The translations under genes were made by a program, and so were the position numbers. This document shows, one piece after another, positions 46,332-54,646 of a stretch of DNA of 64,000 nt. The notes below the pieces were generated by a model. The model was not told where the DNA came from and did not search any database. It worked only from the letters and a program-made list of their open reading frames with translations. The first letter of the stretch is position 1; every line of letters begins with the position of its first letter. Source of the stretch: an uncultured delta proteobacterium (GTDB lineage Bacteria; Desulfobacterota; Binatia; Binatales; Binataceae); contig CAWCDG010000004.1 in the NCBI GenBank assembly GCA_963794325.1, positions 64,001 to 128,000 of the forward strand, written 5' to 3'.

Positions 46332-46712
46332 CTACTTAGTGTAGTCGAAGATTTCGTGCTCCTCGGTCAGGAAGATCGATGAGTGCTCGAAGTCGATGAA
46401 CTTCGATTCGTCTTCGAGCAGGGCGCGGGCTGCCTCGGCGCTGTCTTGCACCGCGCCGCCTCCGCTGAAGTCCTCGAGACTGTCCCACCATACTTCGGTA
46501 ATGCCGTCGTAGGTCTCTTTCATCTTTGGGCGGGTGTTGCGGATTCCCTTGCCCGCATCTTCGTGCACCGTATGACTCTGCACGTACTTCTTCGCGCGCA
46601 TCGACTTCGCGAAGCCGCGCACCAGCGGTCCGTGCTTCTTCAGCCAGTACTCGTGGAAATCTTTTTCCGAGATATCAGCGCGCTTTTTGACTATGTAAAC
46701 GAGTTTGATCAT
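46332..46712 (-). CDS. EthD-domain protein
   Basis: FHEYWLKKHGPLV, YVQSH, YDGITEVWW, LLEDESKFID. Confidence 0.9.
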   Translation of the reverse strand: MIKLVYIVKKRADISEKDFHEYWLKKHGPLVRGFAKSMRAKKYVQSHTVHEDAGKGIRNTRPKMKETYDGITEVWWDSLEDFSGGGAVQDSAEAARALLEDESKFIDFEHSSIFLTEEHEIFDYTK

Positions 46713-46721
46713 TGCAACACC

Positions 46722-47963
46722 TCACATCGCACGTAATCGATTGAGTATCGTCTCGTCAAACACCTCAGCCGGCAGGACTTCGGGTCCGATGAATGCGGCC
46801 GGCGAGGCGTCGGGGAAATTACCGCGGAGACGTTCGTCGCGAACTTTCGCGCGGCGCTCGCGGGCGCGGTCGCTGAATTCGACGCTCAGTATCGAAAATG
46901 TCGAAGCGGTGAGCCTGAGCCGGCGCATCCGCTCGCGCCGTTCCTCCGCGTAAGGTCGAAACAGGTCGGGCGTCCAGTTGCGATCCTCGAGCATCAGGTC
47001 GCGGACGATGCGCACGTCACGGTAAGCGATCGACAATCCTTGCCCGATGATCGGATCGTTGTGGCCGGCGGCGTCGCCTATCAGCACGACGCCCGCGACG
47101 TATGGCACATCAGTCCAGGTGTCCTCGTTGCCGTACGAGTTGCAGGGCCCCGACGGAGTACCGTTCGCGAGGCACTCGCTGCGGGGGACACTCGCGAGGC
47201 GGAACGCGTCGAGGAAGCGCGCCTGGTTGTCGCCGCCGGCGAAGCGGCGCTTCTCGTCGAGCGCGTAACATATATAGAGACGCACGCGCTCGGCCGATTG
47301 CGGGAACGCGAGAAAGTTGATGCGCGCCTCGGTGCCGAAGATCTGCAAATCCGCTGGCCATCCCGTGGTGCCATCGACCAGCATCCCGGCCATCAGGTGA
47401 TGCGTCGGATCGCGATGCTGCTCGATGCCGGCCTGCGAGCGCACGACGGAGTTGCGGCCGTCGGCGCCGATGACGATACGCGGATTGAACTTGCGCTCGA
47501 CGCCGTTGTGCCTGAATCGCACGCCGGGCGCGGCTCCCGCGGTCAGCTGTACGTCGGTGACGCCGCGAAGCAGTTCGGCGCCTGCTTTGAGCGCCTCGGC
47601 GTTCAGCAGGTCGCACATGTCGGGATGTCGCATGCATAGCGGCGGCTTGAAGCCGGCGTTCTCGAAGGCTTTGAGGTCGAGCAGCTGAGACTCCGCGGTG
47701 GCGGCCTCGATGTCGTCGCCGTAAGCGATGTGCCGCCCGAGATGATGTCCTCCGGCCGCAAGCAACGTTTCGTACAGGCCGAGGCGCTGGGTTTCCGCGA
47801 CGCCCCACGGCGCGAGCCATTCGCCGCGCACATGATCGATATGCACCAGCGTCTTCTCGAGGATCGTCACAGTGATGCCGGCTTGGGCGAGCGCTGTCGC
47901 GAGCGCGCTCCCGCCGATTCCAGCGCCAACGATCACGACCTCGGGGTTGGCGTGTTTTTCCAT
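46722..47963 (-). CDS. FAD-dependent monooxygenase (UbiH/PHBH-like)
   Basis: GAGIGG, IGADGRNS, LIGDAAG..DP..GQG fingerprints. Confidence 0.92.
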   Translation of the reverse strand: MEKHANPEVVIVGAGIGGSALATALAQAGITVTILEKTLVHIDHVRGEWLAPWGVAETQRLGLYETLLAAGGHHLGRHIAYGDDIEAATAESQLLDLKAFENAGFKPPLCMRHPDMCDLLNAEALKAGAELLRGVTDVQLTAGAAPGVRFRHNGVERKFNPRIVIGADGRNSVVRSQAGIEQHRDPTHHLMAGMLVDGTTGWPADLQIFGTEARINFLAFPQSAERVRLYICYALDEKRRFAGGDNQARFLDAFRLASVPRSECLANGTPSGPCNSYGNEDTWTDVPYVAGVVLIGDAAGHNDPIIGQGLSIAYRDVRIVRDLMLEDRNWTPDLFRPYAEERRERMRRLRLTASTFSILSVEFSDRARERRAKVRDERLRGNFPDASPAAFIGPEVLPAEVFDETILNRLRAM

Positions 47964-47968
47964 GCGGC

Positions 47969-49481
47969 TCAGTTCACCACTATATCGAAGTGCGCGGTTT
48001 CAATTTTGCCCGCGCGTTTGAACTGTAGAAAAATTCGATAGTGGCCGGACTTGGGAAACCCGTAAGGCACGGACAGCTCCGGCGAGATGCTCGCGCTCGC
48101 GTTCATGTTCATGCCGGACATGTTCATGCCCGGCATCGAGTTGGAGGTGGCGTCGGAGTTGGTGCTGGCCATCATCAGCGACGCCATTGGGACAGAGCCT
48201 GAAGGATGGATGTGCGCGAACACTTGCAGGTCGGAGCTTATGATTTCGGCGTGCGCGGCCATTCCCATGTACGGCTCGACGTCGGACGCCGGCTTGCCGT
48301 TTTGATCCTGTACTTCGAAGCGCAGGATCATCGGCGCGTTCGCGCGAATCGCGGCGCCGTCGCGATGCCATACGACGCGCGTGCCGTCGTCGAGCACATC
48401 GATCGCGGAATCCGTTGACGACGTGAGCGCGGGCGCATGGCCACCGCAGTCATCGCCCTTGAGCGGTGTGCCGCTTATCTGCGGCAAGTCGATCGAGCCG
48501 ACCAGCGTCCAGGGAAATCCGGTTTGGTCCACGATGTCGGCGAACACGGTGTAGTGGCCGGGCTCAATCCGCGGGAGCGCGTCAACGAACGCTCCATCGG
48601 ACTGGCGATCTGGATGCAAATGCCAGATGCGGTCGAGCGCGGGCGTGCGCAGGAGGAACAGATGCATCAGATGGCCGTGGTCGGGCAGGATGCCGTCCAT
48701 GACGTTGAACCGCAGCCAAAGCTTGTCGTCCGGCGATGGACGAATCGCGAGGCGGTTACCATCGACAACGGTCAGCGCAAGTTTCGGTGGCTTGAATATT
48801 TTCGTAATCGCCGCATAGTTCCGCGCGTCGGCATTCCACCATGCGAATGCGAGATAGAAGATCGCCGCGACGATGACTCCGGTTATCGCCATCGCGCGCC
48901 ATCCGCGACGCTTGAGCTCGGGCGTGACCGGAGCACCCGGAGCGAGGCGCGATTCGCGAGCCGCGCCGCCGACAATTGAAACCGCGCCGATGGCCAGGGC
49001 GATCGCGAGCGTCAGCAGCAATGCGCCCAGCGCCGGCGGCATCGAGAGCATCCGGCGCGCGGCAGATGGAACCGGCACCGACATTTGCGCGTTACCATGC
49101 GGGACCCGCGACGTTTATCAGCACCCGCATCGAGCCGTACTCCATCAGCCAGAGACTCGAAGTGAAGAGATGCGGATCGATTGGAGAACGCTGAGCGGCG
49201 TCCGGGACGGGAGCATACTGCGAGCCCGCGCCTGCGAGGCGAGTCACCGCAGTGGTAACCTTCTGCACGTCGTCGGAGTTGGCACGAATCTGCACATCGG
49301 CGACACCGGGGATTACCGCGGGAACGTTGACCGTCACGAACAAGTGATACGGGCCGGCGTCGCCTTCGTAATAAACGTTGGGACTGCCGACATGCGCGTC
49401 GGCGGGGATCGCGAAGAGCAGGACCGCGACCGCGAGCATCGCGACACGGCTTGCCGATAGCGTCGGGCGGGAGCGGCGCAC
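47969..49481 (-). CDS. His/Met-rich membrane-anchored periplasmic protein with PmoB-like topology (frameshifted near 49102)
   Basis: Signal ADA|HVGS, N-terminal domain, two TM helices, C-terminal domain with DHGHLMH, WHLHP, MGMAAH, AHIHP, MPGMNMSGMNM; removing one base at about 49102 fuses the two ORFs into 503 aa. Confidence 0.75.
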
Positions 49482-49482
49482 G

Positions 49483-50682
49483 TCAGCGGCGGACGGTGCG
49501 CATCCAGTTGCCCAGCGCCATTCCGATCGAGCAGAAGATTATCGACATCGCGAGCGCGATCATCATTCCTTCACTGAATGCGGCCCAAGTCTTATCCAAA
49601 TCGGCGAAATGATATGGGTTGTAGAGCAAATTGGCGGCGTCGAAAAACCCGAAATAGTTGGCGCCGAAAATTGGATTGCGCGCATAAGGCGAGATGAGGA
49701 ACTCCGCGAATGGCCACTGCGCCGCGACGAACGCCGCGATGAAAACAAATCCGGCTGCAAGCGCGGATTTCCAGCCGCCCCACTTCTCGCCCATCCGCGC
49801 GCGCAGCAGATCGAGCGCGAATGCGGGCACGATCACCAGTACCGGGAACCATAGCGGCACCATGTGCGTGACGTGCTGATACACCGGGCCGAGTTTGGGC
49901 GCGGCAGGGAATAGCGGGAAGATCCACAAGGCAGCGAGAAAGAGTCCGGTGTAAATTGCGGCCATCGTGGTCGCCGGCCAGCGATTTCTGGAGACGACTC
50001 GAGATCGCGATCAGCGCACAGCGGAAATGAAGTCGCCGACCGCGCGATAGAACTCCGAGCTGTGCATGAATTCCATCGGCGTCGATTCAAGGATGAACAA
50101 CGCCGAGCCTGCGACGACGATGCCGCCGATGGTGAGCAGCAGCCAGTCGAGGCGGCGCTGATAGCTGCCGGTCGCGCGGTTGAGATGCGCGCATACCAGC
50201 AGCATCGCGCCAAGTTCGATCATCAACTCGCCCATTCCGAGCATCGAATGCGGCAGGCTGACGATTTTGACATCGAGTCCGTAGGCGTTATGCCACCAGT
50301 TGTCGAAGGGCGCCGAAGTCAGCATCGCAAATCCGCCCCAGGCTGCCATGAAACATCCGAGCGGCCCGCGAAAGCCCCAGACCGAGATGCTTGAGTCCCT
50401 GGCTTCCTGCGAGTTGCCGAAGGTGGTCGATAGAATCGCGTAGCCGCTGGCAATCCCGGCCAGCACGCCCGCGAGATAGATCATCATGTGCGCGGGGGTC
50501 CAGAAGGTGTCGCGGCCGATCGAGATATGCCACGAGATGTCCCAGTAACCGCCGAACACGTCGGCGGCAGTCGCAGCGGCGAGGCACCACACGTACCACG
50601 GAATCGACGCGGTGCGCTCGGCCGCGACGCTACGAACGTCAGCGCGCGGGCGAAGGTCGAAGGTTGCGGCGGCATTTCCCAT
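49483..50682 (-). CDS. Polytopic membrane protein with PmoC-like copper motifs and PmoA-like C-terminal half (garbled at about 49995-50040)
   Basis: ATG 50682 after GAGGAG; WDISWHISIGRDTFWTPAH and FDNWWHNAYGLDVKIVSLPH; the two ORFs share a frame separated by one TGA, best explained by three 1-nt insertions. Confidence 0.75.
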
Positions 50683-50947
50683 GGCTGGTCTCCTCGACAA
50701 TTGTAGCGTTATGCCGCGCGTCCGCCCACAGGTGGAGACAATCGAAATCCTGCGCATGACTCCCGCTCACGTGCCATCGAGTGTTCCGTTCTGAAGCCTA
50801 AGCGCGCTGATGATGTTTGCTCGAATGACCTTTGATCGGCTGGCGCGGGCTATCGGCAGGATTCAGCGAATTCCAGTTAACCAACGATGACTGGCATCCC
50901 GCTTGCAGTTCATCGCTGTGGGGGCCTTTCCTACAAAAGGGGCGGGA

Positions 50948-51862
50948 ATGGCCGCGATGGTCGTCGCGCTGATACTGGTTGCGGGCGTTTTGCACGCGTC
51001 TGAGTACGGAGTTGGCACCTATCGTCCGGGCCAGGTCGATCTGTTCGCGGGCACGCTTCCGGCGCCGGGCGGACTGTTGGTGAAGAACTACTTCCTGTTT
51101 CAGGACGCGAGCCTTACCGCGCAACCCAACCACGTACCGGTGCGATTCCATACTCATACGATTACTTACACGGACGCGACGTTTATGACTTACACGACGC
51201 CATGGCGGATTTTCGGCGCGAACTGGGGAGTGGCGGCATTGGCGCAGACGCGAATCGCCGATCAGACGTTGCGGGTCACGGTGATTGGCGGACCTACCTC
51301 GAAGCAACATTCGACGGTTGGCGGATTTGGCGATCTGATCTTTTCGCCGTTGATGTTGAACTGGAACTTTTCGAAATTTCACCTGGTCAGCGCGCTGATG
51401 CTCTATGCTCCGACCGGCAGCTATGATCGCCGCCGCATTATCGACGTTGGGCTGAATCGATGGTCGATAGAGCCCGACCTCGGCGTGACCTGGCTGGATC
51501 CGGAAACGGGACGTCACGCATCGCTGTTCGTCGGCTATACCTTGAACGCTGAAAATCCTTCGACCCACTATGTGAGCGGCCAGGAATTCCACGCGGACTT
51601 CGTCTTCGCGCAGCACCTTCCGCACGGATTAGTTGCGGGGATAGCCGGCTACGCGGTGCAACAGACCACCGCGGACTCAGGCAGCGGGGCGACGCTGGGC
51701 GCATTCAAGGGGCGGGTGATTGCGTTGGGCCCGCTGGCCGGCATTACCGTTCCAATCCTGAAAGTACCGATCAATTTTTCCTTCAAGTACGAATTCGAAT
51801 TCGCCGTGCAAAACCGATCGACGGGAAATGAACTCTGGCTGACCGCTGCGTTGCGGTTCTGA
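50948..51862 (+). CDS. SphA/MetA-pathway (COG4313-type) outer-membrane beta-barrel channel
   Basis: Signal peptide, GFGDL..P, YAPTGSYD, N.W..EP, SGQEFH.D, QQTT.DSG, terminal Phe. Confidence 0.85.
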   Translation: MAAMVVALILVAGVLHASEYGVGTYRPGQVDLFAGTLPAPGGLLVKNYFLFQDASLTAQPNHVPVRFHTHTITYTDATFMTYTTPWRIFGANWGVAALAQTRIADQTLRVTVIGGPTSKQHSTVGGFGDLIFSPLMLNWNFSKFHLVSALMLYAPTGSYDRRRIIDVGLNRWSIEPDLGVTWLDPETGRHASLFVGYTLNAENPSTHYVSGQEFHADFVFAQHLPHGLVAGIAGYAVQQTTADSGSGATLGAFKGRVIALGPLAGITVPILKVPINFSFKYEFEFAVQNRSTGNELWLTAALRF

Positions 51863-51865
51863 GTC

Positions 51866-54646
51866 ATGCGACAGAACGGCAAGGTCGTGCACGATGGTCA
51901 GGCGGGGCCCCGGCACGCGATGGAGCGCGAGGACGCGCTGCTGGCGGCGCTGGTCAGAACCTCGGACGACGCGATCATCAGCCTCTCGACGGAGTTCCGC
52001 ATAACGAGCTGGAATCGGGGAGCGCAAAAGCTACTCGGCTACACGGCGGAAGAGGCGATCGGCAAACGGCCGTTCGATCTTTATATTCGGCCGGGCGACC
52101 GCGCGATCGATCAGGCGAGGCTGGTGCGCGACCTCGCGATGATAAAAGAAAACCCCGAGGCCATGCGCCTGCTCGAATTGCCGCTGCAAAGGAAAGACGG
52201 CACCATCCTCGACGCGGCGATTGGTGGCAGCGGAATCTACGACGCCAGCGGAGAGCTGATCGGTTTGTCGGCGATTATGCGCGACGTTACCGAGCGCAGG
52301 CGCGTCGAGCGTGAAAGCGCGGCGCTCGCGGCAATCGTCGAGTCCTCCGACGACGCGATCACGACGATCGCACCAGACCTGTCCATCGCGTACTGGAACC
52401 GCGGCGCCGAGAAAATGTTCGGCTTCACCGCGGCGGAATCGATCGGACAGCCGTTCACGCGGAACATTGCGCCGGAGAACCATGCACAGGCGCGGGAAGT
52501 CATTGACCACCTGATGGCGCGACCGGATGAGGTGGTTCGCTTCGAAGGTCCCAACCATAGAAAAGACGGCACGTCGGTTGAGGCATCCACCGTTTGTTTT
52601 GCGATCCGCGATGCAGACGGAAAAGTGCTCGCCGTGTCGAGCATCCAGCGCGACATCAGCGAACGCATCCGCTCCGAGCGCCAGGCGGCACGACTTGCCG
52701 CGATCGTCAACGCCTCGCAGGACGCCATCATGATCGTGTCGTCTGAGTCCAAGATACTTTTTTGGAATCCGGCGGCAGAAAGTGTGTACGGTCACACGGC
52801 TGAGGAGGCGGTTGGAAAAGGCCTCGAGCTGTTCGTTCCACCCGACGAACTTGCGGAAACTATTGCCAGAACCCGGCGCGTGGTCGAGACCGGCCAGCCG
52901 GTATCCTGGGAACAGCATGGCATCGCAAACGGCACTACGTTCGTTTCCGCGGTCAATATTTTTCCGATGCGCGATACTGCCGGCAATGCGACCTGCGTAG
53001 CCGGCATAGGACGCGATATTACCGCGCTGAAGAATACCGAACGCGAGCTGGTCGCGGCGCGCGAAGCGGCGTTCGCGGCGTCGCAAGCCAAATCGGAATT
53101 CCTGTCCAGCATGTCGCACGAGATCCGCACGCCGATGACCGCGATCCTCGGGATGGCCGAGTTGCTGGCCGAGAGCGAGCTGAATACCGAGCAGCGCCGC
53201 TACATCGAAATTCTTGGCAATAACGGACGCGCGCTACTCGACCTGATCAATAGCATCCTGGATCTGGCCAAGGTCGAGAGCGGCCGGCTGACGCTCGAGC
53301 GCGTCGGCTTCGACCTGCGCGAGGTGGTGGAAAAGTCAGCGCAGACGCTCGCACTGCGCGCGCATGCGAAGGGTCTGGAGCTGAATGTCAGCATCGCGCC
53401 CGAGGTCCCGACCGCGTTGCTCGGCGATCCGCTGAGATTAAGGCAGGTGCTGATCAACCTGATCGGGAACGCGATCAAATTTACCGACCACGGCGAGGTA
53501 CTGATTTCTGTCGAACGCGATTACGCGCCGGACGATCCGATCCGATTGAAATTCAGCGTTCGCGACACCGGGATCGGAATTGCAAAGGACAAGGTCCCTG
53601 CTCTATTTGCCGCCTTCTCGCAGGCCGACTCCTCGACCGCGCGAAAGTACGGCGGCAGCGGCCTTGGACTTGCGATCGTCAAGCGCCTGGTCAACCTGAT
53701 GCAAGGCGAGGTTTCGGTGGAGAGCGAGCCGGGGATGGGCAGCGTTTTCAGCTTCACTTCGCTTTTCGAGATGAACCCGGACGCGCCCGTCGCGTCGCCC
53801 TGGCCGGACCTTGCCGAAGTGCAGGTTCTAATCGTCGACGACCAACCGGCCGGGCGCGCCGTGCTACGCGAGATGCTCGCCGGGCATGGGGCAAGCGTCG
53901 TCGAAGCCACGTCGTATCAAGAAAGCATGAAGGCAATCGCGCGGGCCGTCGCGGCGGGACGGCCGCCACGGATCGTGCTGCTCGACGATCGAATCGCTTC
54001 ACCGGGCACCGGTGGGATTGCGCGACTGATCGCGGCGGCATCGCACTGCGGGGCGTCGATCATAGCAACGATCCATTGCGATAACCTGGCCGCCGATATT
54101 TCGCGGCTCAAATCGTTGAAGGTCGAAACCTACCTGGTCAAGCCGATTGATATGAGCGAACTTGCCAAAGTGGTTCGCGGCGCGATCGCGGGCGAAACCG
54201 GTGAAGCGCCACAGAACCACCGCGCCGCGATCAATCCGCAGCCGCCGCCAGTCATCGACCAACCGCTCAAAATTCTGTTTGCCGACGATTCAGCCGACAA
54301 CCGGACGCTGATCCGCGCTTTTCTGAAGAAGACGCCCTACCATCTCGACGAAGTCGAAAACGGCCGGCAAGCGATCGACGCCTTCATCGCGGCCGGTGAC
54401 TACGACCTGGTGCTGATGGACATCCAGATGCCGGAAGTTGATGGGTACGCCGCGACGCGTGCGATTCGCGATTGGGAGCGCGAGCACAATCGCAAGCGTA
54501 CTCCGATAATCGCGCTGACCGCGTCGGTGTTCAACGAAGCGGTCCGCCTCACCCGCGCCGCGGGATGCGACGCGCACGTGGGCAAGCCGATCAGCAAGGT
54601 AACGCTGCTGCGCGCGATATACGATGCGGCGGACGCTCAGGCCTGA
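51866..54646 (+). CDS. Cytoplasmic hybrid histidine kinase (3 PAS, HisKA, HATPase, 2 REC)
   Basis: Three AIV.SS.DAI..WN.GAE PAS repeats, SHEIRTP, NAIKFT, GGSGLGL, VLMDIQMP. Confidence 0.95.
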   Translation: MRQNGKVVHDGQAGPRHAMEREDALLAALVRTSDDAIISLSTEFRITSWNRGAQKLLGYTAEEAIGKRPFDLYIRPGDRAIDQARLVRDLAMIKENPEAMRLLELPLQRKDGTILDAAIGGSGIYDASGELIGLSAIMRDVTERRRVERESAALAAIVESSDDAITTIAPDLSIAYWNRGAEKMFGFTAAESIGQPFTRNIAPENHAQAREVIDHLMARPDEVVRFEGPNHRKDGTSVEASTVCFAIRDADGKVLAVSSIQRDISERIRSERQAARLAAIVNASQDAIMIVSSESKILFWNPAAESVYGHTAEEAVGKGLELFVPPDELAETIARTRRVVETGQPVSWEQHGIANGTTFVSAVNIFPMRDTAGNATCVAGIGRDITALKNTERELVAAREAAFAASQAKSEFLSSMSHEIRTPMTAILGMAELLAESELNTEQRRYIEILGNNGRALLDLINSILDLAKVESGRLTLERVGFDLREVVEKSAQTLALRAHAKGLELNVSIAPEVPTALLGDPLRLRQVLINLIGNAIKFTDHGEVLISVERDYAPDDPIRLKFSVRDTGIGIAKDKVPALFAAFSQADSSTARKYGGSGLGLAIVKRLVNLMQGEVSVESEPGMGSVFSFTSLFEMNPDAPVASPWPDLAEVQVLIVDDQPAGRAVLREMLAGHGASVVEATSYQESMKAIARAVAAGRPPRIVLLDDRIASPGTGGIARLIAAASHCGASIIATIHCDNLAADISRLKSLKVETYLVKPIDMSELAKVVRGAIAGETGEAPQNHRAAINPQPPPVIDQPLKILFADDSADNRTLIRAFLKKTPYHLDEVENGRQAIDAFIAAGDYDLVLMDIQMPEVDGYAATRAIRDWEREHNRKRTPIIALTASVFNEAVRLTRAAGCDAHVGKPISKVTLLRAIYDAADAQA

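Follow-up and report, generated by a model that had tools for sequence, protein, structure and literature searches.

A gene pair in a Binataceae genome that may encode a two-subunit membrane copper protein related to the copper membrane monooxygenases

Two adjacent genes on the minus strand

The window analysed here is a stretch of 64,000 nucleotides from a contig of an uncultured Binataceae bacterium (CAWCDG010000004.1). It carries two adjacent minus-strand genes, which an earlier note made from the sequence alone had read at 50682-49483 and 49481-47969, and which are present at those coordinates:

49483..50682, minus strand: gene 1, a polytopic membrane protein of ~398 aa (from ORF pieces, intact homologues and the restored frame)
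47969..49481, minus strand: gene 2, a bitopic protein of ~500 aa (from ORF pieces, model and family)

Gene 1 starts at the ATG at 50682 (MGNAAATFDL...), in agreement with the start of its intact relatives (MGTAATFDL...), and stops with the TGA at 49483. As assembled, it is split into a 248-aa ORF (50757-50011) and a 160-aa ORF (49965-49483), with three frame changes from ~50040 to 49995. Gene 2 starts with a GTG at 49481, just one base past the TGA of gene 1, as the earlier note had also read it, and is broken at ~49100, which leaves a 129-aa and a 371-aa ORF. Both genes are intact in same-genus relatives, where gene 1 is 396-401 aa long, which bears out the membrane protein of ~398 aa that had been read after repair, and gene 2 is ~507 aa long. 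The AlphaFold model of a relative 88% identical to gene 1 has a pLDDT of 90.7 and a pTM of 0.89, and the gene 2 model has a pLDDT of 90.4.

The frame breaks are probably assembly errors

The breaks in the two frames were traced to four positions by comparison with contigs from public sequencing runs:

49998, 50016 and 50033: three single surplus bases breaking gene 1 (289-nt contig and frame restoration)
49100..49104: one surplus base breaking gene 2 (contigs of runs X1 and X4)

For gene 2, a 487-nt contig of the public run X1 has one base fewer at 49100 and a single other difference, and a contig of the public run X4 has one base fewer at 49104; these gaps are alternative placements of one surplus base. 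For gene 1, a 289-nt contig of run X1 has one base fewer at each of the three positions and 17 other differences, and thus belongs to a close relative and not to the same strain. Repair from reads or homologues, as the earlier note had proposed, restores both genes: removing bases 49100, 49998, 50016 and 50033 leaves open frames of 426 codons (gene 1) and 522 codons (gene 2), and the restored products align with relatives' proteins over residues 4-396 for gene 1 (347/393 identical) and 1-506 for gene 2 (417/502 identical). Because the public-run contigs are without those bases and their removal opens both frames, the breaks in both genes are probably four single-base insertion errors of assembly. 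As the contig bearing on gene 1 comes from a relative, a true pseudogene in the Binataceae strain keeps some probability, but given the same contigs and the restoration of both frames by dropping just four bases, we judge this less likely than assembly error. The note's suggestion that the genes are invisible to annotation because they are broken does not hold, as relatives with unbroken genes lack annotation just the same, being named hypothetical protein and matching no Pfam or NCBIfam model.

The N-terminal half of gene 1 resembles PmoC and AmoC

The first half of gene 1 contains the following features, with residues in the numbering of the relative:

50179..50601, minus strand: PmoC/AmoC-like four-helix core with both putative copper sites (residues ~28-168; profile search, hhalign, HMM)
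50488..50541, minus strand: CuC-like motif W-D-ISW-H-ISIG-R-D-TFWTPA-H (D47, H51, R56, D57, H64; hhalign)
50248..50304, minus strand: CuD-like motif F-D-NWW-H-NAYGL-D-VKIVSLP-H (D126, H130, D136, H144; hhalign)

As read in gene 1 itself, the motifs are D-ISW-H-ISIGRDTFWTPA-H (50541-50488) and D-NWW-H-NAYGLDVKIVSLP-H (50304-50248), as the earlier note had located them. Conservation of their Asp and His residues in homologues, which that note had put forward as a check, is complete: both sets are invariant in 51/51 gene-1 members, which were collected without use of the motifs, and in 80/80 genome loci. Because the 80 loci were retrieved by the patterns PFD[ND]WWH and D[TS]FWTPAH, only D47, H51 and H144 count as independent there.

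Three sequence tests with controls support the likeness to PmoC that the note had proposed. When the gene-1 family profile (51 sequences) was searched against 177,635 PDB sequences, three matches were returned at E<=10, and all three were AmoC (E 0.0019, 0.0035 and 0.0078), aligned on D-SWH--I-RDT-(F)TP-H. The hhalign comparison of the gene-1 family with 65 canonical PmoC/AmoC sequences gave a probability of 71.9, an E of 3.4e-5 and a score of 44.7 over 108 columns, with every CuC and CuD ligand in register, whereas nine reversed or unrelated control alignments scored 14-29 (E 0.012-0.42). With an HMM built from these 65 PmoC/AmoC sequences, 54 of the 63 gene-1 ORFs were retrieved at E<=0.01, the best at 2.7e-8, compared with 0/56 gene-2 ORFs and 0/761 of the remaining ORFs of the 80 loci. 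Pfam AmoC (PF04896) is also the commonest sub-threshold family among the gene-1 members (7/51), with a best score of 17.9 bits (P0033, E 0.0021) against a gathering threshold of 26.7 bits; the gene 1 fragment of the window scores 11.4 bits, likewise below threshold.

In the residue alignment (A2), D47/H51/R56/D57/H64 fall column for column on PmoC D143/H147/R152/D153/H160, and D126/H130/D136/H144 on N219/H223/E229-E230/H237. Gene 1 has the CuC spacing (Asp, His at +4, His 13 past the first His, an Arg-Asp pair between) and the CuD spacing (Asn, His at +4, an acidic residue, His at +14), except that at the second site Asp takes the place of both the Asn and the Glu of CuMMOs. Judged from these alignments, the gene 1 core has counterparts of every residue that ligates CuC and CuD in pMMO and AMO. 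The ligand spacing equals that published for pMMO (Asp156/His160/His173 and Asn227/His231/His245, with Arg165 beside; from an excerpt of PMC12576850) and for AMO (D136/H140/D146/H153 and N207/H211/E218/H225; from an excerpt of PMC13058606).

At the level of structure, the wide search matched the N-terminal half of the gene-1 model to four-helix bundles of generic type only, and PmoC is absent from the listings. As the second-look listing shows one chain per entry, so that PmoC could not show beside the better-scoring PmoA chain, its absence there is no test of the PmoC fold.

The C-terminal half of gene 1 resembles PmoA and AmoA

The remainder of gene 1 forms a second unit:

49483..50172, minus strand: PmoA/AmoA-like half (relative's residues ~170-396; VIA-align, Foldseek, hhalign)

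In a VIA-align search with the gene-1 model, 11 PmoA/AmoA chains lead the list, with Z 13.7-14.8 and rmsd 3.8-4.3 A over 194-215 of ~240 residues, model residues 170-396 being laid onto PmoA 21-245. The next unrelated entry has a Z of 8.8, and values below ~13 are uninformative for helical bundles according to the tool's own caveat. The top Foldseek matches are also PmoA/AmoA (prob 0.99-1.00). The superposition of this half on PmoA, which the earlier note had set out as a check, is thus obtained. At the sequence level, hhalign of the gene-1 family against 25 PmoA sequences (E 2.6e-4, probability 42%) places D289 on the invariant Asp of PmoA and aligns the segments that the note had matched (FP..LL..PA.ALDLL and QWPF). 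This likeness is visible only by profile-profile alignment: our own PmoA HMM found no match among the gene-1 ORFs (best E 0.93), and none of the 51 members matched Pfam AMO (PF02461) at E<=1. ECF transporter S-components also match this half in the wide search (Z 8.5-10.1), but clearly more weakly than PmoA/AmoA, and neither a signal in the sequence nor neighbouring ECF genes accompany the match.

Sequence and model together portray gene 1 as one polypeptide, with a minimal PmoC-like four-helix core at the front and a PmoA-like helical bundle after it.

Gene 2 has the layout of PmoB without detectable homology to it

From its N-terminus, the gene 2 product has a signal peptide, the His that begins the mature chain, a beta-sandwich, two TM helices and two further beta domains, the latter with His clusters and a Met-rich loop that corresponds to a low-confidence loop (446-461) in the model:

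49392..49394, minus strand: codon of the first mature residue, His30 (ADA/HVGSP; homologue alignment)
48101..48136, minus strand: Met-rich loop MPGMNMSGMNMN in the last periplasmic domain (sequence)

Of 69 homologues, 66 have His at this position; the remaining three are one Thr and two gaps at miscalled starts. His30 is invariant in the 48-row gene-2 alignment (A3). The full set of invariant residues is H30, D102, W111, M113, D267, H268, H273, H287, H289, M407, H410, H423 and H425. The earlier note had described a PmoB-type gene, and of this the layout and the N-terminal His stand, but homology to PmoB does not: Pfam Monooxygenase_B (PF04744) matched 0/48 gene-2 members, the PDB profile search with the gene-2 family returned no match, hhalign against 24 PmoB sequences stayed inside the control range (E 0.017, score 27.5), and HMMs of gene 2 and PmoB, run in both directions, reached an E of ~1 at best (0.97). 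PmoB was not among the best 50 matches of either VIA search with gene 2, and the Foldseek matches of the gene 2 model were all generic Ig/FN3 proteins of several domains. The conserved HxH of CuB is also absent from the N-terminal domain, where H30 is the only invariant His, accompanied by D102, W111 and M113; the invariant His residues of PmoB in our alignment are H33, H137 and H139.

The structure search placed the N-terminal domain closest to CrdA of Helicobacter pylori (9ll2; Z 9.9, 101/108 residues) and to CopC (5icu; Z 8.2), values only 1-2 units above those of generic FN3/Ig matches. Neither protein has sequence similarity to gene 2, and the gene 2 sandwich, unlike either, is attached through its two TM helices to a membrane protein that is CuMMO-like. 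CopC likewise uses an N-terminal His. Elsewhere, the C-terminal module of gene 2 is fused to the Pfam heavy-metal-binding domain HMBD (4.9e-10) and also to YHYH domains. There is a weak YtkA lead (2/48 members; atlas score 0.76). A TctB match on the TM hairpin was set aside as spurious.

The pair is widespread, unnamed and predicted to form a complex

No Pfam or NCBIfam model reaches threshold for either gene, and the source names of the family proteins are all "hypothetical" or "predicted secreted protein". The 30 clusters nearest to gene 1 in the protein atlas are all named "hypothetical protein", gene 2 finds weak leads only, and the gene 2 family, with more than 4,652 proteins, is unnamed throughout. 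We found no description of the family in the full-text literature, a search that did not extend to subscription-only papers and supplements.

The gene pair occurs at no fewer than 576 loci in species-representative genomes and is frequent in heterotrophic soil bacteria. Co-occurrence, which the earlier note had suggested surveying, is strong: gene 2 lies directly downstream of gene 1 on the same strand in 70/80 loci, mostly of Acidobacteriota, and for 7 of the 10 other loci another gene 1-gene 2 pair is present elsewhere in the genome. The order that the note had likened to pmoC-A-B, with a C-like part, an A-like part and then a B-like gene, holds as well. Canonical AmoC was not found in some genomes with the pair, including the source genome. 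Among seven family members looked up there was no cultured carrier, and among the 20 runs listed there was no RNA carrying the locus.

The heteromer foreseen in the note is also predicted. Complex prediction for gene 1 with gene 2 scored 0.81 in three runs, with at least 92% of contacts in agreement and a partner pLDDT of at least 84, against 0.00 for the best control. This mark is reached by 58/80 solved complexes and 2/110 mismatched pairs, figures that are only roughly valid here because we used our own alignments. Gene 2 is a conserved neighbour and, by modelling, the predicted partner of gene 1.

Gene neighbourhood

The genes flanking the pair in the window include the following:

46722..47963, minus strand: FAD-dependent monooxygenase, starting 5 nt past gene 2 (Pfam FAD_binding_3, 2.1e-24)
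46332..46712, minus strand: EthD-domain protein (Pfam EthD, 7.6e-17)
50903..51862, plus strand: divergent outer-membrane channel of the MetA-pathway phenol-degradation family, upstream (Pfam Phenol_MetA_deg, 3.2e-47)

The FAD-dependent monooxygenase and EthD genes are likely co-transcribed with the gene pair. As these neighbours are common to only 2/83 related loci, they are lineage-specific; the outer-membrane channel is common to 1/83. In 15/77 loci the gene directly downstream of the pair encodes a short-chain dehydrogenase. A PAS histidine kinase lies upstream in the window and is not a conserved neighbour.

Interpretation and possible roles

We read the gene pair as a putative two-subunit membrane copper protein that forms a deep, undescribed branch of the CuMMOs (pMMO/AMO), and we put the probability of this at roughly 0.7. 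The earlier note had inferred a two-gene CuMMO-related complex outside the pmo/amo clades, which agrees with the PmoC and PmoA likeness of gene 1, the adjacency of the two genes in most loci and the predicted heteromer. The CuMMO superfamily is itself known, and what is most likely new is the two-subunit branch. As gene 1 resembles a PmoC/PmoA fusion with all the copper-binding residues, the pair may be an unrecognised copper enzyme. Copper is favoured by features of gene 2, namely the mature N-terminal His, the nearness of its N-terminal domain to CrdA and CopC, and the HMBD fusion of its C-terminal module. The short-chain dehydrogenase, the FAD-dependent monooxygenase, the EthD-domain protein and the outer-membrane channel, which is of a type for hydrophobic compounds, would suit an oxygenase, although this neighbourhood varies between loci.

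In the mechanism that we propose, helix pairs 1-2 and 3-4 would carry the two ligand sets at their periplasmic ends, where these would bind two neighbouring copper ions in the manner of PmoC, with the PmoA-like half providing a hydrophobic cavity beside them. The first TM helix of gene 2 would pack on gene 1 helix 107-133, and its CrdA/CopC-like beta-sandwich, bearing the N-terminal His, would sit on the loop in which the second site lies. Copper could be acquired and handed over (or electrons relayed) by the C-terminal domains of gene 2, which are rich in His and Met, and the complex would activate O2 and hydroxylate a small hydrophobic substrate. We advance tentatively, at somewhat below even odds, the stronger reading that the pair represents a third, two-subunit CuMMO architecture, whose O2-dependent hydroxylase activity would occur in abundant heterotrophs of the soil (Acidobacteriota, Binataceae and others). 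These heterotrophs are not regarded as oxidisers of hydrocarbons, methane or ammonia.

Copper trafficking seems to fit the Met-rich loop and the CopC/CrdA likeness as well as catalysis does. The pair could accordingly descend from CuMMOs without being an oxygenase, serving in periplasmic copper uptake, buffering or delivery (e.g., to cuproenzymes), with gene 2 as a CopC/CrdA-like chaperone and the Asp/His sites as transfer or storage sites. The features of gene 2 suit such a role, namely an N-terminal domain nearest to CrdA and CopC, an N-terminal His without the HxH of CuB, the Met-rich loop, the fusions of its C-terminal module to HMBD and YHYH domains, and the faint YtkA lead, as do the lack of a reductase or dehydrogenase fixed in the operon and the frequency of the pair in heterotrophic soil bacteria. 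Nevertheless, we regard this role as rather unlikely: a transfer site needs neither both CuC- and CuD-like sets with their second-shell Arg and Asp nor a PmoA-like half, let alone the invariant Asp of that half, and the surroundings do not point to copper homeostasis, as no copper ATPase, multicopper oxidase, CusF/CopZ or copper regulator (Pfam) turned up in the 77 genes first downstream, nor does a copper-homeostasis cluster recur in the flanks (the upstream side being judged by clustering).

We consider it improbable that a CuMMO-like fold here serves another metal (Zn, Fe) or another reaction (hydrolysis, desaturation), as a membrane enzyme or sensor. The ligand sets are of generic 2-His-1-carboxylate types, two CuMMO ligand positions of the second site are altered to Asp, the PmoC site holds zinc in some crystal structures, and the upstream kinase could hint at sensing; yet the kinase is not conserved as a neighbour, the gene 2 partner bears typical copper features, and it is precisely at the copper sites that the sequence resembles PmoC most. 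Least probable of all, and very much so, is that the PmoC and PmoA likeness is convergent or due to chance in an unrelated helical membrane protein with DxxxH...H spacing. Every Pfam score is sub-threshold, and helical bundles easily give middling Z values in the range that is uninformative. Against this, three separate sequence tests pick out PmoC among the PDB sequences and 880 local ORFs, two motifs with eight ligand positions and the accompanying Arg, Thr and Pro align without a register shift, PmoA leads the structure list by 5 Z units over the next fold, and the C-then-A order is that of the pmoCAB operon and of a canonical C-A fusion.

If the membrane copper protein that we favour is catalytic, the oxidation capacity of dominant soil phyla would include a part so far uncounted and invisible to pmoA/amoA marker surveys, and a system of two genes would possibly be easier to express for mechanistic and biocatalytic work. 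According to an excerpt of PMC13058606, CuMMOs initiate the oxidation of methane, ammonia and short alkanes, and the location of their active site, at CuB or at CuC/CuD, has long been disputed. Since the CuC/CuD ligands and the PmoA fold are kept with a non-homologous partner, the gene pair can be seen as a natural dissection of a CuMMO that shows which parts are indispensable. A two-subunit hydroxylase, if true, would provide natural evidence for the PmoC sites as the ancestral catalytic core, because CuC/CuD and the PmoA cavity would be kept while PmoB is swapped for an unrelated copper-binding partner, and it would offer a simpler system toward the CuMMO mechanism. Even if it handles copper only, the pair would still show what CuMMOs evolved from or into.

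Comparison with known systems

The gene pair shares with CuMMOs (PmoCAB/AmoCAB and hydrocarbon monooxygenases) the PmoA fold over ~200 residues, the order of C, A and a bitopic periplasmic subunit whose signal peptide is removed to leave an N-terminal His, and a predicted C/A-B-like complex. It differs in having two genes and a predicted heterodimer where CuMMOs have three subunits, and in a PmoC part reduced to the four ligand-bearing helices. Gene 2 further differs from PmoB in one extra C-terminal domain, the one with the His clusters and Met-rich loop.

The C-then-A order of gene 1 also occurs in P0322, an AmoC and AMO sequence in one 514-aa chain, which suggests that C-A fusions are tolerated; P0322 is a single cluster representative and possibly a gene-calling artefact. 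With 210 and 224 bits on the Pfam models, against at most 18 bits for the gene-1 family, P0322 is an ordinary CuMMO. PmoA-PmoB fusions are likewise present in databases.

Gene layout and repair of the reading frames

The two genes under study are arranged head to tail, with the GTG of the second one base past the TGA of the first, and a sensor kinase gene lies further upstream:

50682 (ATG) to 49483 (stop), reverse strand: gene 1, PmoC/PmoA-like fused membrane protein
49481 (GTG) to 47969, reverse strand: gene 2, PmoB-like layout
51866 to 54646, forward strand: hybrid sensor kinase of 926 aa with several PAS, HisKA/HATPase, and two receiver domains

In the source assembly (4.45 Mb, 10 contigs, 85% completeness; the window is C4:64001-128000), gene 1 is read as 50757-50011 and 49965-49483, the frame changing three times within about 45 bases, and a break near 49100 leaves gene 2 as ORFs of 129 and 371 aa. 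Genomes of the same genus contain both genes intact, gene 1 with 396 or 401 aa and gene 2 with about 507 aa. We compared the stretch with contigs from four public soil runs. A 487-nt contig that otherwise differs only once has one base fewer at 49100, and a contig from a second run has one base fewer at 49104; the two positions are different ways of placing a single surplus base. At each of 49998, 50016, and 50033, one base is absent from a 289-nt contig whose 17 other differences indicate a close relative. When bases 49100, 49998, 50016, and 50033 were removed by script, both frames opened (426 and 522 codons), and the translations matched relatives' proteins end to end, with 347 of 393 residues identical for gene 1 and 417 of 502 for gene 2. 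Insertion errors in the assembly most likely explain the breaks, a firm conclusion for gene 2 and a probable one for gene 1. The structural work therefore used the intact proteins of relatives, L003:1507-2697 for gene 1 and L013:6779-8302 for gene 2, with residues numbered as in those proteins (in the window's own gene 1, each number is the relative's + 1).

The three surplus bases at 49998-50033 fall inside 36 nt, a stretch that has GATC twice and CTCGAG, and they may stem from base calls that go wrong systematically at modified motifs. Similar artificial frame shifts may in that case affect other genes of the assembly, which would fit a completeness of 85% with only 10 contigs.

The N-terminal part of gene 1 and PmoC

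The two PmoC-like motifs that the earlier note had read in gene 1 were found exactly where it placed them, at 50541-50488 and 50304-50248. When the profile of 51 gene-1 family members (A1) was searched against 177,635 distinct PDB sequences, three matches were retrieved at E≤10, all of them ammonia monooxygenase subunit C (E 0.0019-0.0078) and aligned on the first motif. We then used a canonical set built from one PmoC, with 75 homologues gathered and 65 sequences aligned (A2). Aligning A1 to A2 with hhalign gave a probability of 71.9, E 3.4e-5, and a score of 44.7 over 108 columns, whereas nine controls consisting of reversed alignments and unrelated families scored 14-29 (E 0.012-0.42). At the first site, W46, D47, W50, H51, R56, D57, T61, P62, and H64 are matched in register to PmoC, the counterparts being (A)S-W, D143, H147, R152, D153, T157, P158, and H160; at the second, D126, H130, D136, and H144 fall on N219, H223, E229/E230, and H237, and both ligand sets lie in one nearly gap-free alignment. 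An HMM of the 65 canonical PmoC/AmoC sequences, run unfiltered on 880 ORFs from 80 loci, picked up 54 of the 63 that overlap gene 1 (E≤0.01, best 2.7e-8), and at that cutoff none of the 56 gene-2 ORFs or 761 other ORFs (best E 1.2).

One source assigns Asp156/His160/His173 to CuC and Asn227/His231/His245 to CuD of the Methylococcus capsulatus particulate methane monooxygenase (pMMO), with Arg165 in the second shell (PMC12576850), and another lists D136/H140/D146/H153 and N207/H211/E218/H225 as copper ligands of an ammonia monooxygenase (PMC13058606). The gene-1 residues aligned to PmoC coincide with these published copper ligands (PMC12576850, PMC13058606). All eight ligand counterparts are invariant in the 51 aligned members and in all 80 loci, although the loci were retrieved with motif patterns that leave only D47, H51, and H144 as independent positions there. 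In the model of the relative's protein, the PmoC-like part consists of four ligand-bearing helices (28-53, 62-87, 107-133, and 142-168), a minimal core lacking the N-terminal helices of PmoC. These profile comparisons show gene 1 to be a remote homologue of PmoC at its putative copper sites.

The C-terminal part of gene 1 and PmoA

The AlphaFold model of the relative's gene 1 protein is confident (pLDDT 90.7, pTM 0.89), and its best PDB matches by Foldseek are PmoA/AmoA chains, with E 0.03-0.4 and a probability of 0.99-1.00 (0.95 for the low-resolution 3chx_B). Structural alignment places 11 PmoA/AmoA chains on top (Z 13.7-14.8, rmsd 3.8-4.3 Å, 194-215 aligned residues), superposing model residues ~170-396 on PmoA 21-245; a twelfth, low-resolution PmoA follows at Z 9.6 and the next unrelated entry at Z 8.8. 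A search of representatives only returned ECF S-components on the C-terminal half (Z 8.5-10.1), its sole PmoA representative being the low-resolution one (Z 9.4).

Aligned to 25 PmoA sequences by hhalign, A1 gave E 2.6e-4 and a probability of 42 over 112 columns, pairing gene-1 FPvLLIaPAfALDLL with PmoA WPATTIPMALALDLTL, the family's invariant D289 with the invariant Asp of PmoA, and QWPF with NW. The PmoA-like segments named in the earlier note are the same ones. A plain PmoA HMM had no match to gene 1 ORFs, and the relation thus rests on fold and profile-profile evidence, by which gene 1 is a remote homologue of PmoA in its predicted fold.

A canonical protein, P0322, carries AmoC and AMO domains in a single 514-aa chain in the same order as gene 1, so a fusion in C-A order has precedent in the databases. 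Canonical fusions met in the comparison also include PmoA running into PmoB (ORFs of 684-720 aa); the examples (P0322, P0365, L106:2781-4943, L121:1896-3953, and L123:1550-3604) may be real fusions or else frame or gene-calling artefacts.

Gene 2 and its pairing with gene 1

The gene 2 model, again of a relative's protein (pLDDT 90.4), runs from a signal peptide through a beta-sandwich (36-139) and two TM helices (149-176 and 187-228) to two beta domains (233-506) that include a disordered Met-rich loop, and His30, the first mature residue, belongs to the N-terminal sandwich domain. This is the layout of PmoB plus one additional domain. As a homologue of PmoB, however, gene 2 went undetected in every test: Pfam Monooxygenase_B matched 0 of 48 members, the family profile had no match in the PDB, hhalign against 24 PmoB drawn from canonical operons in metagenomes stayed within the control range (E 0.017, score 27.5), and HMMs in either direction reached E ~1 at best (0.97). 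The invariant H137/H139 pair of PmoB has no counterpart.

The invariant residues of the N-domain are H30, D102, W111, and M113, and its closest structures are CrdA, a copper-resistance protein (Z 9.9 over 101 of 108 residues), and CopC (Z 8.2), scores that exceed those of generic Ig/FN3 folds by just one to two Z units. The C-terminal domains hold invariant His clusters (D267, H268, H273, H287, H289, M407, H410, H423, and H425). This His-rich two-domain module is also found in separate secreted proteins (L182:1009-2172 and L187:1261-3096), fused to the Pfam heavy-metal-binding domain HMBD (E 4.9e-10) or to a YHYH domain. The module has no name; it seems to be mobile and periplasmic and probably binds metal.

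In 70 of 80 loci, gene 2 comes directly downstream of gene 1 and on its strand. Ten genomes had a sampled gene 1 alone; eight of these have a full-length gene 2 elsewhere, in seven cases with another gene 1 immediately upstream. The solo gene-1 paralogues (L035, L036, L051, L052, L053, L070, L079, L083, L090, and L093) keep all ligand residues, and their genomes mostly also hold a complete pair.

The predicted complex of the two proteins scored 0.81 in three of three runs (best of three controls, 0.00), with at least 92% of contacts in common and partner pLDDT of at least 84. Of 80 solved complexes, 58 scored that high, as did 2 of 110 mismatched pairs; these counts are only approximate since custom alignments were used. 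The score seems unlikely to reflect the predictor's "memory" of pMMO because no likeness between gene 2 and PmoB could be detected. By the confident contacts, the first TM helix of gene 2 is predicted to touch gene 1 helix 107-133, and sandwich loops 56-59, 78-92, and 111-118, which include invariant W111 and M113, to contact gene 1 residues 124-142, the loop with the second ligand set, as well as 259-268 of the PmoA-like half. Gene 2 is a conserved companion of gene 1 that is predicted to bind it and has features of copper proteins.

Placement of the family

We put the probability that the family falls within the superfamily of copper membrane monooxygenases (CuMMOs) in the wide sense at about 0.8, and the family most likely shares both its descent and its way of working with the C and A subunits. 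Granted that membership, we lean tentatively, at slightly under even odds, toward the complex being an oxygenase; it is rather unlikely that it handles copper without catalysis, and some other chemistry takes the remaining share. An oxygenase would bind a pair of adjacent copper ions at the periplasmic leaflet, as CuMMOs do, the PmoA-like half would form the substrate cavity, gene 2 would supply copper (or electrons), and the reaction would be O2-dependent hydroxylation of some small hydrophobic compound. In contrast to known CuMMOs, the family scores under the curated threshold in each of the three CuMMO Pfam families and has two genes instead of three and a non-homologous B-like subunit. For these reasons it should not be classed with pmo/amo/hmo. 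Our literature search, which covered the main text of openly available articles, found no description of it.

Genomic neighbourhood and distribution

Beyond the pair there is no fixed neighbour gene. In 15 of 77 loci the first gene downstream encodes a short-chain dehydrogenase, which clustering detects in 18 of 80, and 8 of 80 have acetyl-CoA-synthetase-like genes upstream. None of the 77 first downstream genes was found to encode a copper ATPase, a multicopper oxidase, or a copper chaperone. In the window, an FAD-dependent monooxygenase begins 5 nt past gene 2 and is followed by an EthD protein, and a MetA-pathway outer-membrane channel lies upstream and divergent; these neighbours are common to only 1-2 of 83 related loci. 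The hybrid sensor kinase adjoins the channel gene, and its place near the pair is not conserved.

No Pfam or NCBIfam model matches either protein at its threshold, and family members are named solely "hypothetical protein" or "predicted secreted protein" at source. One search yielded 166 longer-form relatives of gene 1 among the candidates scored, and gene 2 has 4,652 relatives at E≤0.001 among 8,000 candidates, its close homologues being named Candidatus Binatus or Binataceae. With one genome per species, at least 598 stretches match the two gene-1 motif patterns and at least 576 are confirmed; the best 80 of these are mostly from Acidobacteriota (Bryobacterales, Terriglobia, Solibacter, and Acidiferrales), with Binataceae and a few others. 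Distribution in the window's own phylum is patchy: of 24 other genomes from the genus, 11 have the gene-1 family, against 0 of 400 other genomes in an even phylum sample. The Pfam AmoC model had no match in the window's genome and matched 1 of 401 genomes of the phylum sample, G031, which is of the same class, lacks the gene 1/gene 2 family, and carries two complete canonical pmoCAB-type operons (L016 and L017; AmoC 143-144 bits).

A same-genus genome, G004, has gene 1 twice on one strand about 4.7 kb apart (C15:177025-177678 and C15:181759-182412), both copies 92% identical to that of the window, an arrangement that points to the pair having been duplicated in tandem. Two contigs of one MAG labelled Candidatus Saccharimonadales, a small-genome episymbiont lineage, also carry the pair (L043 and L078); their identity to the query, about 50%, is like that of Acidobacteriota copies, and faulty binning or labelling is the probable cause.
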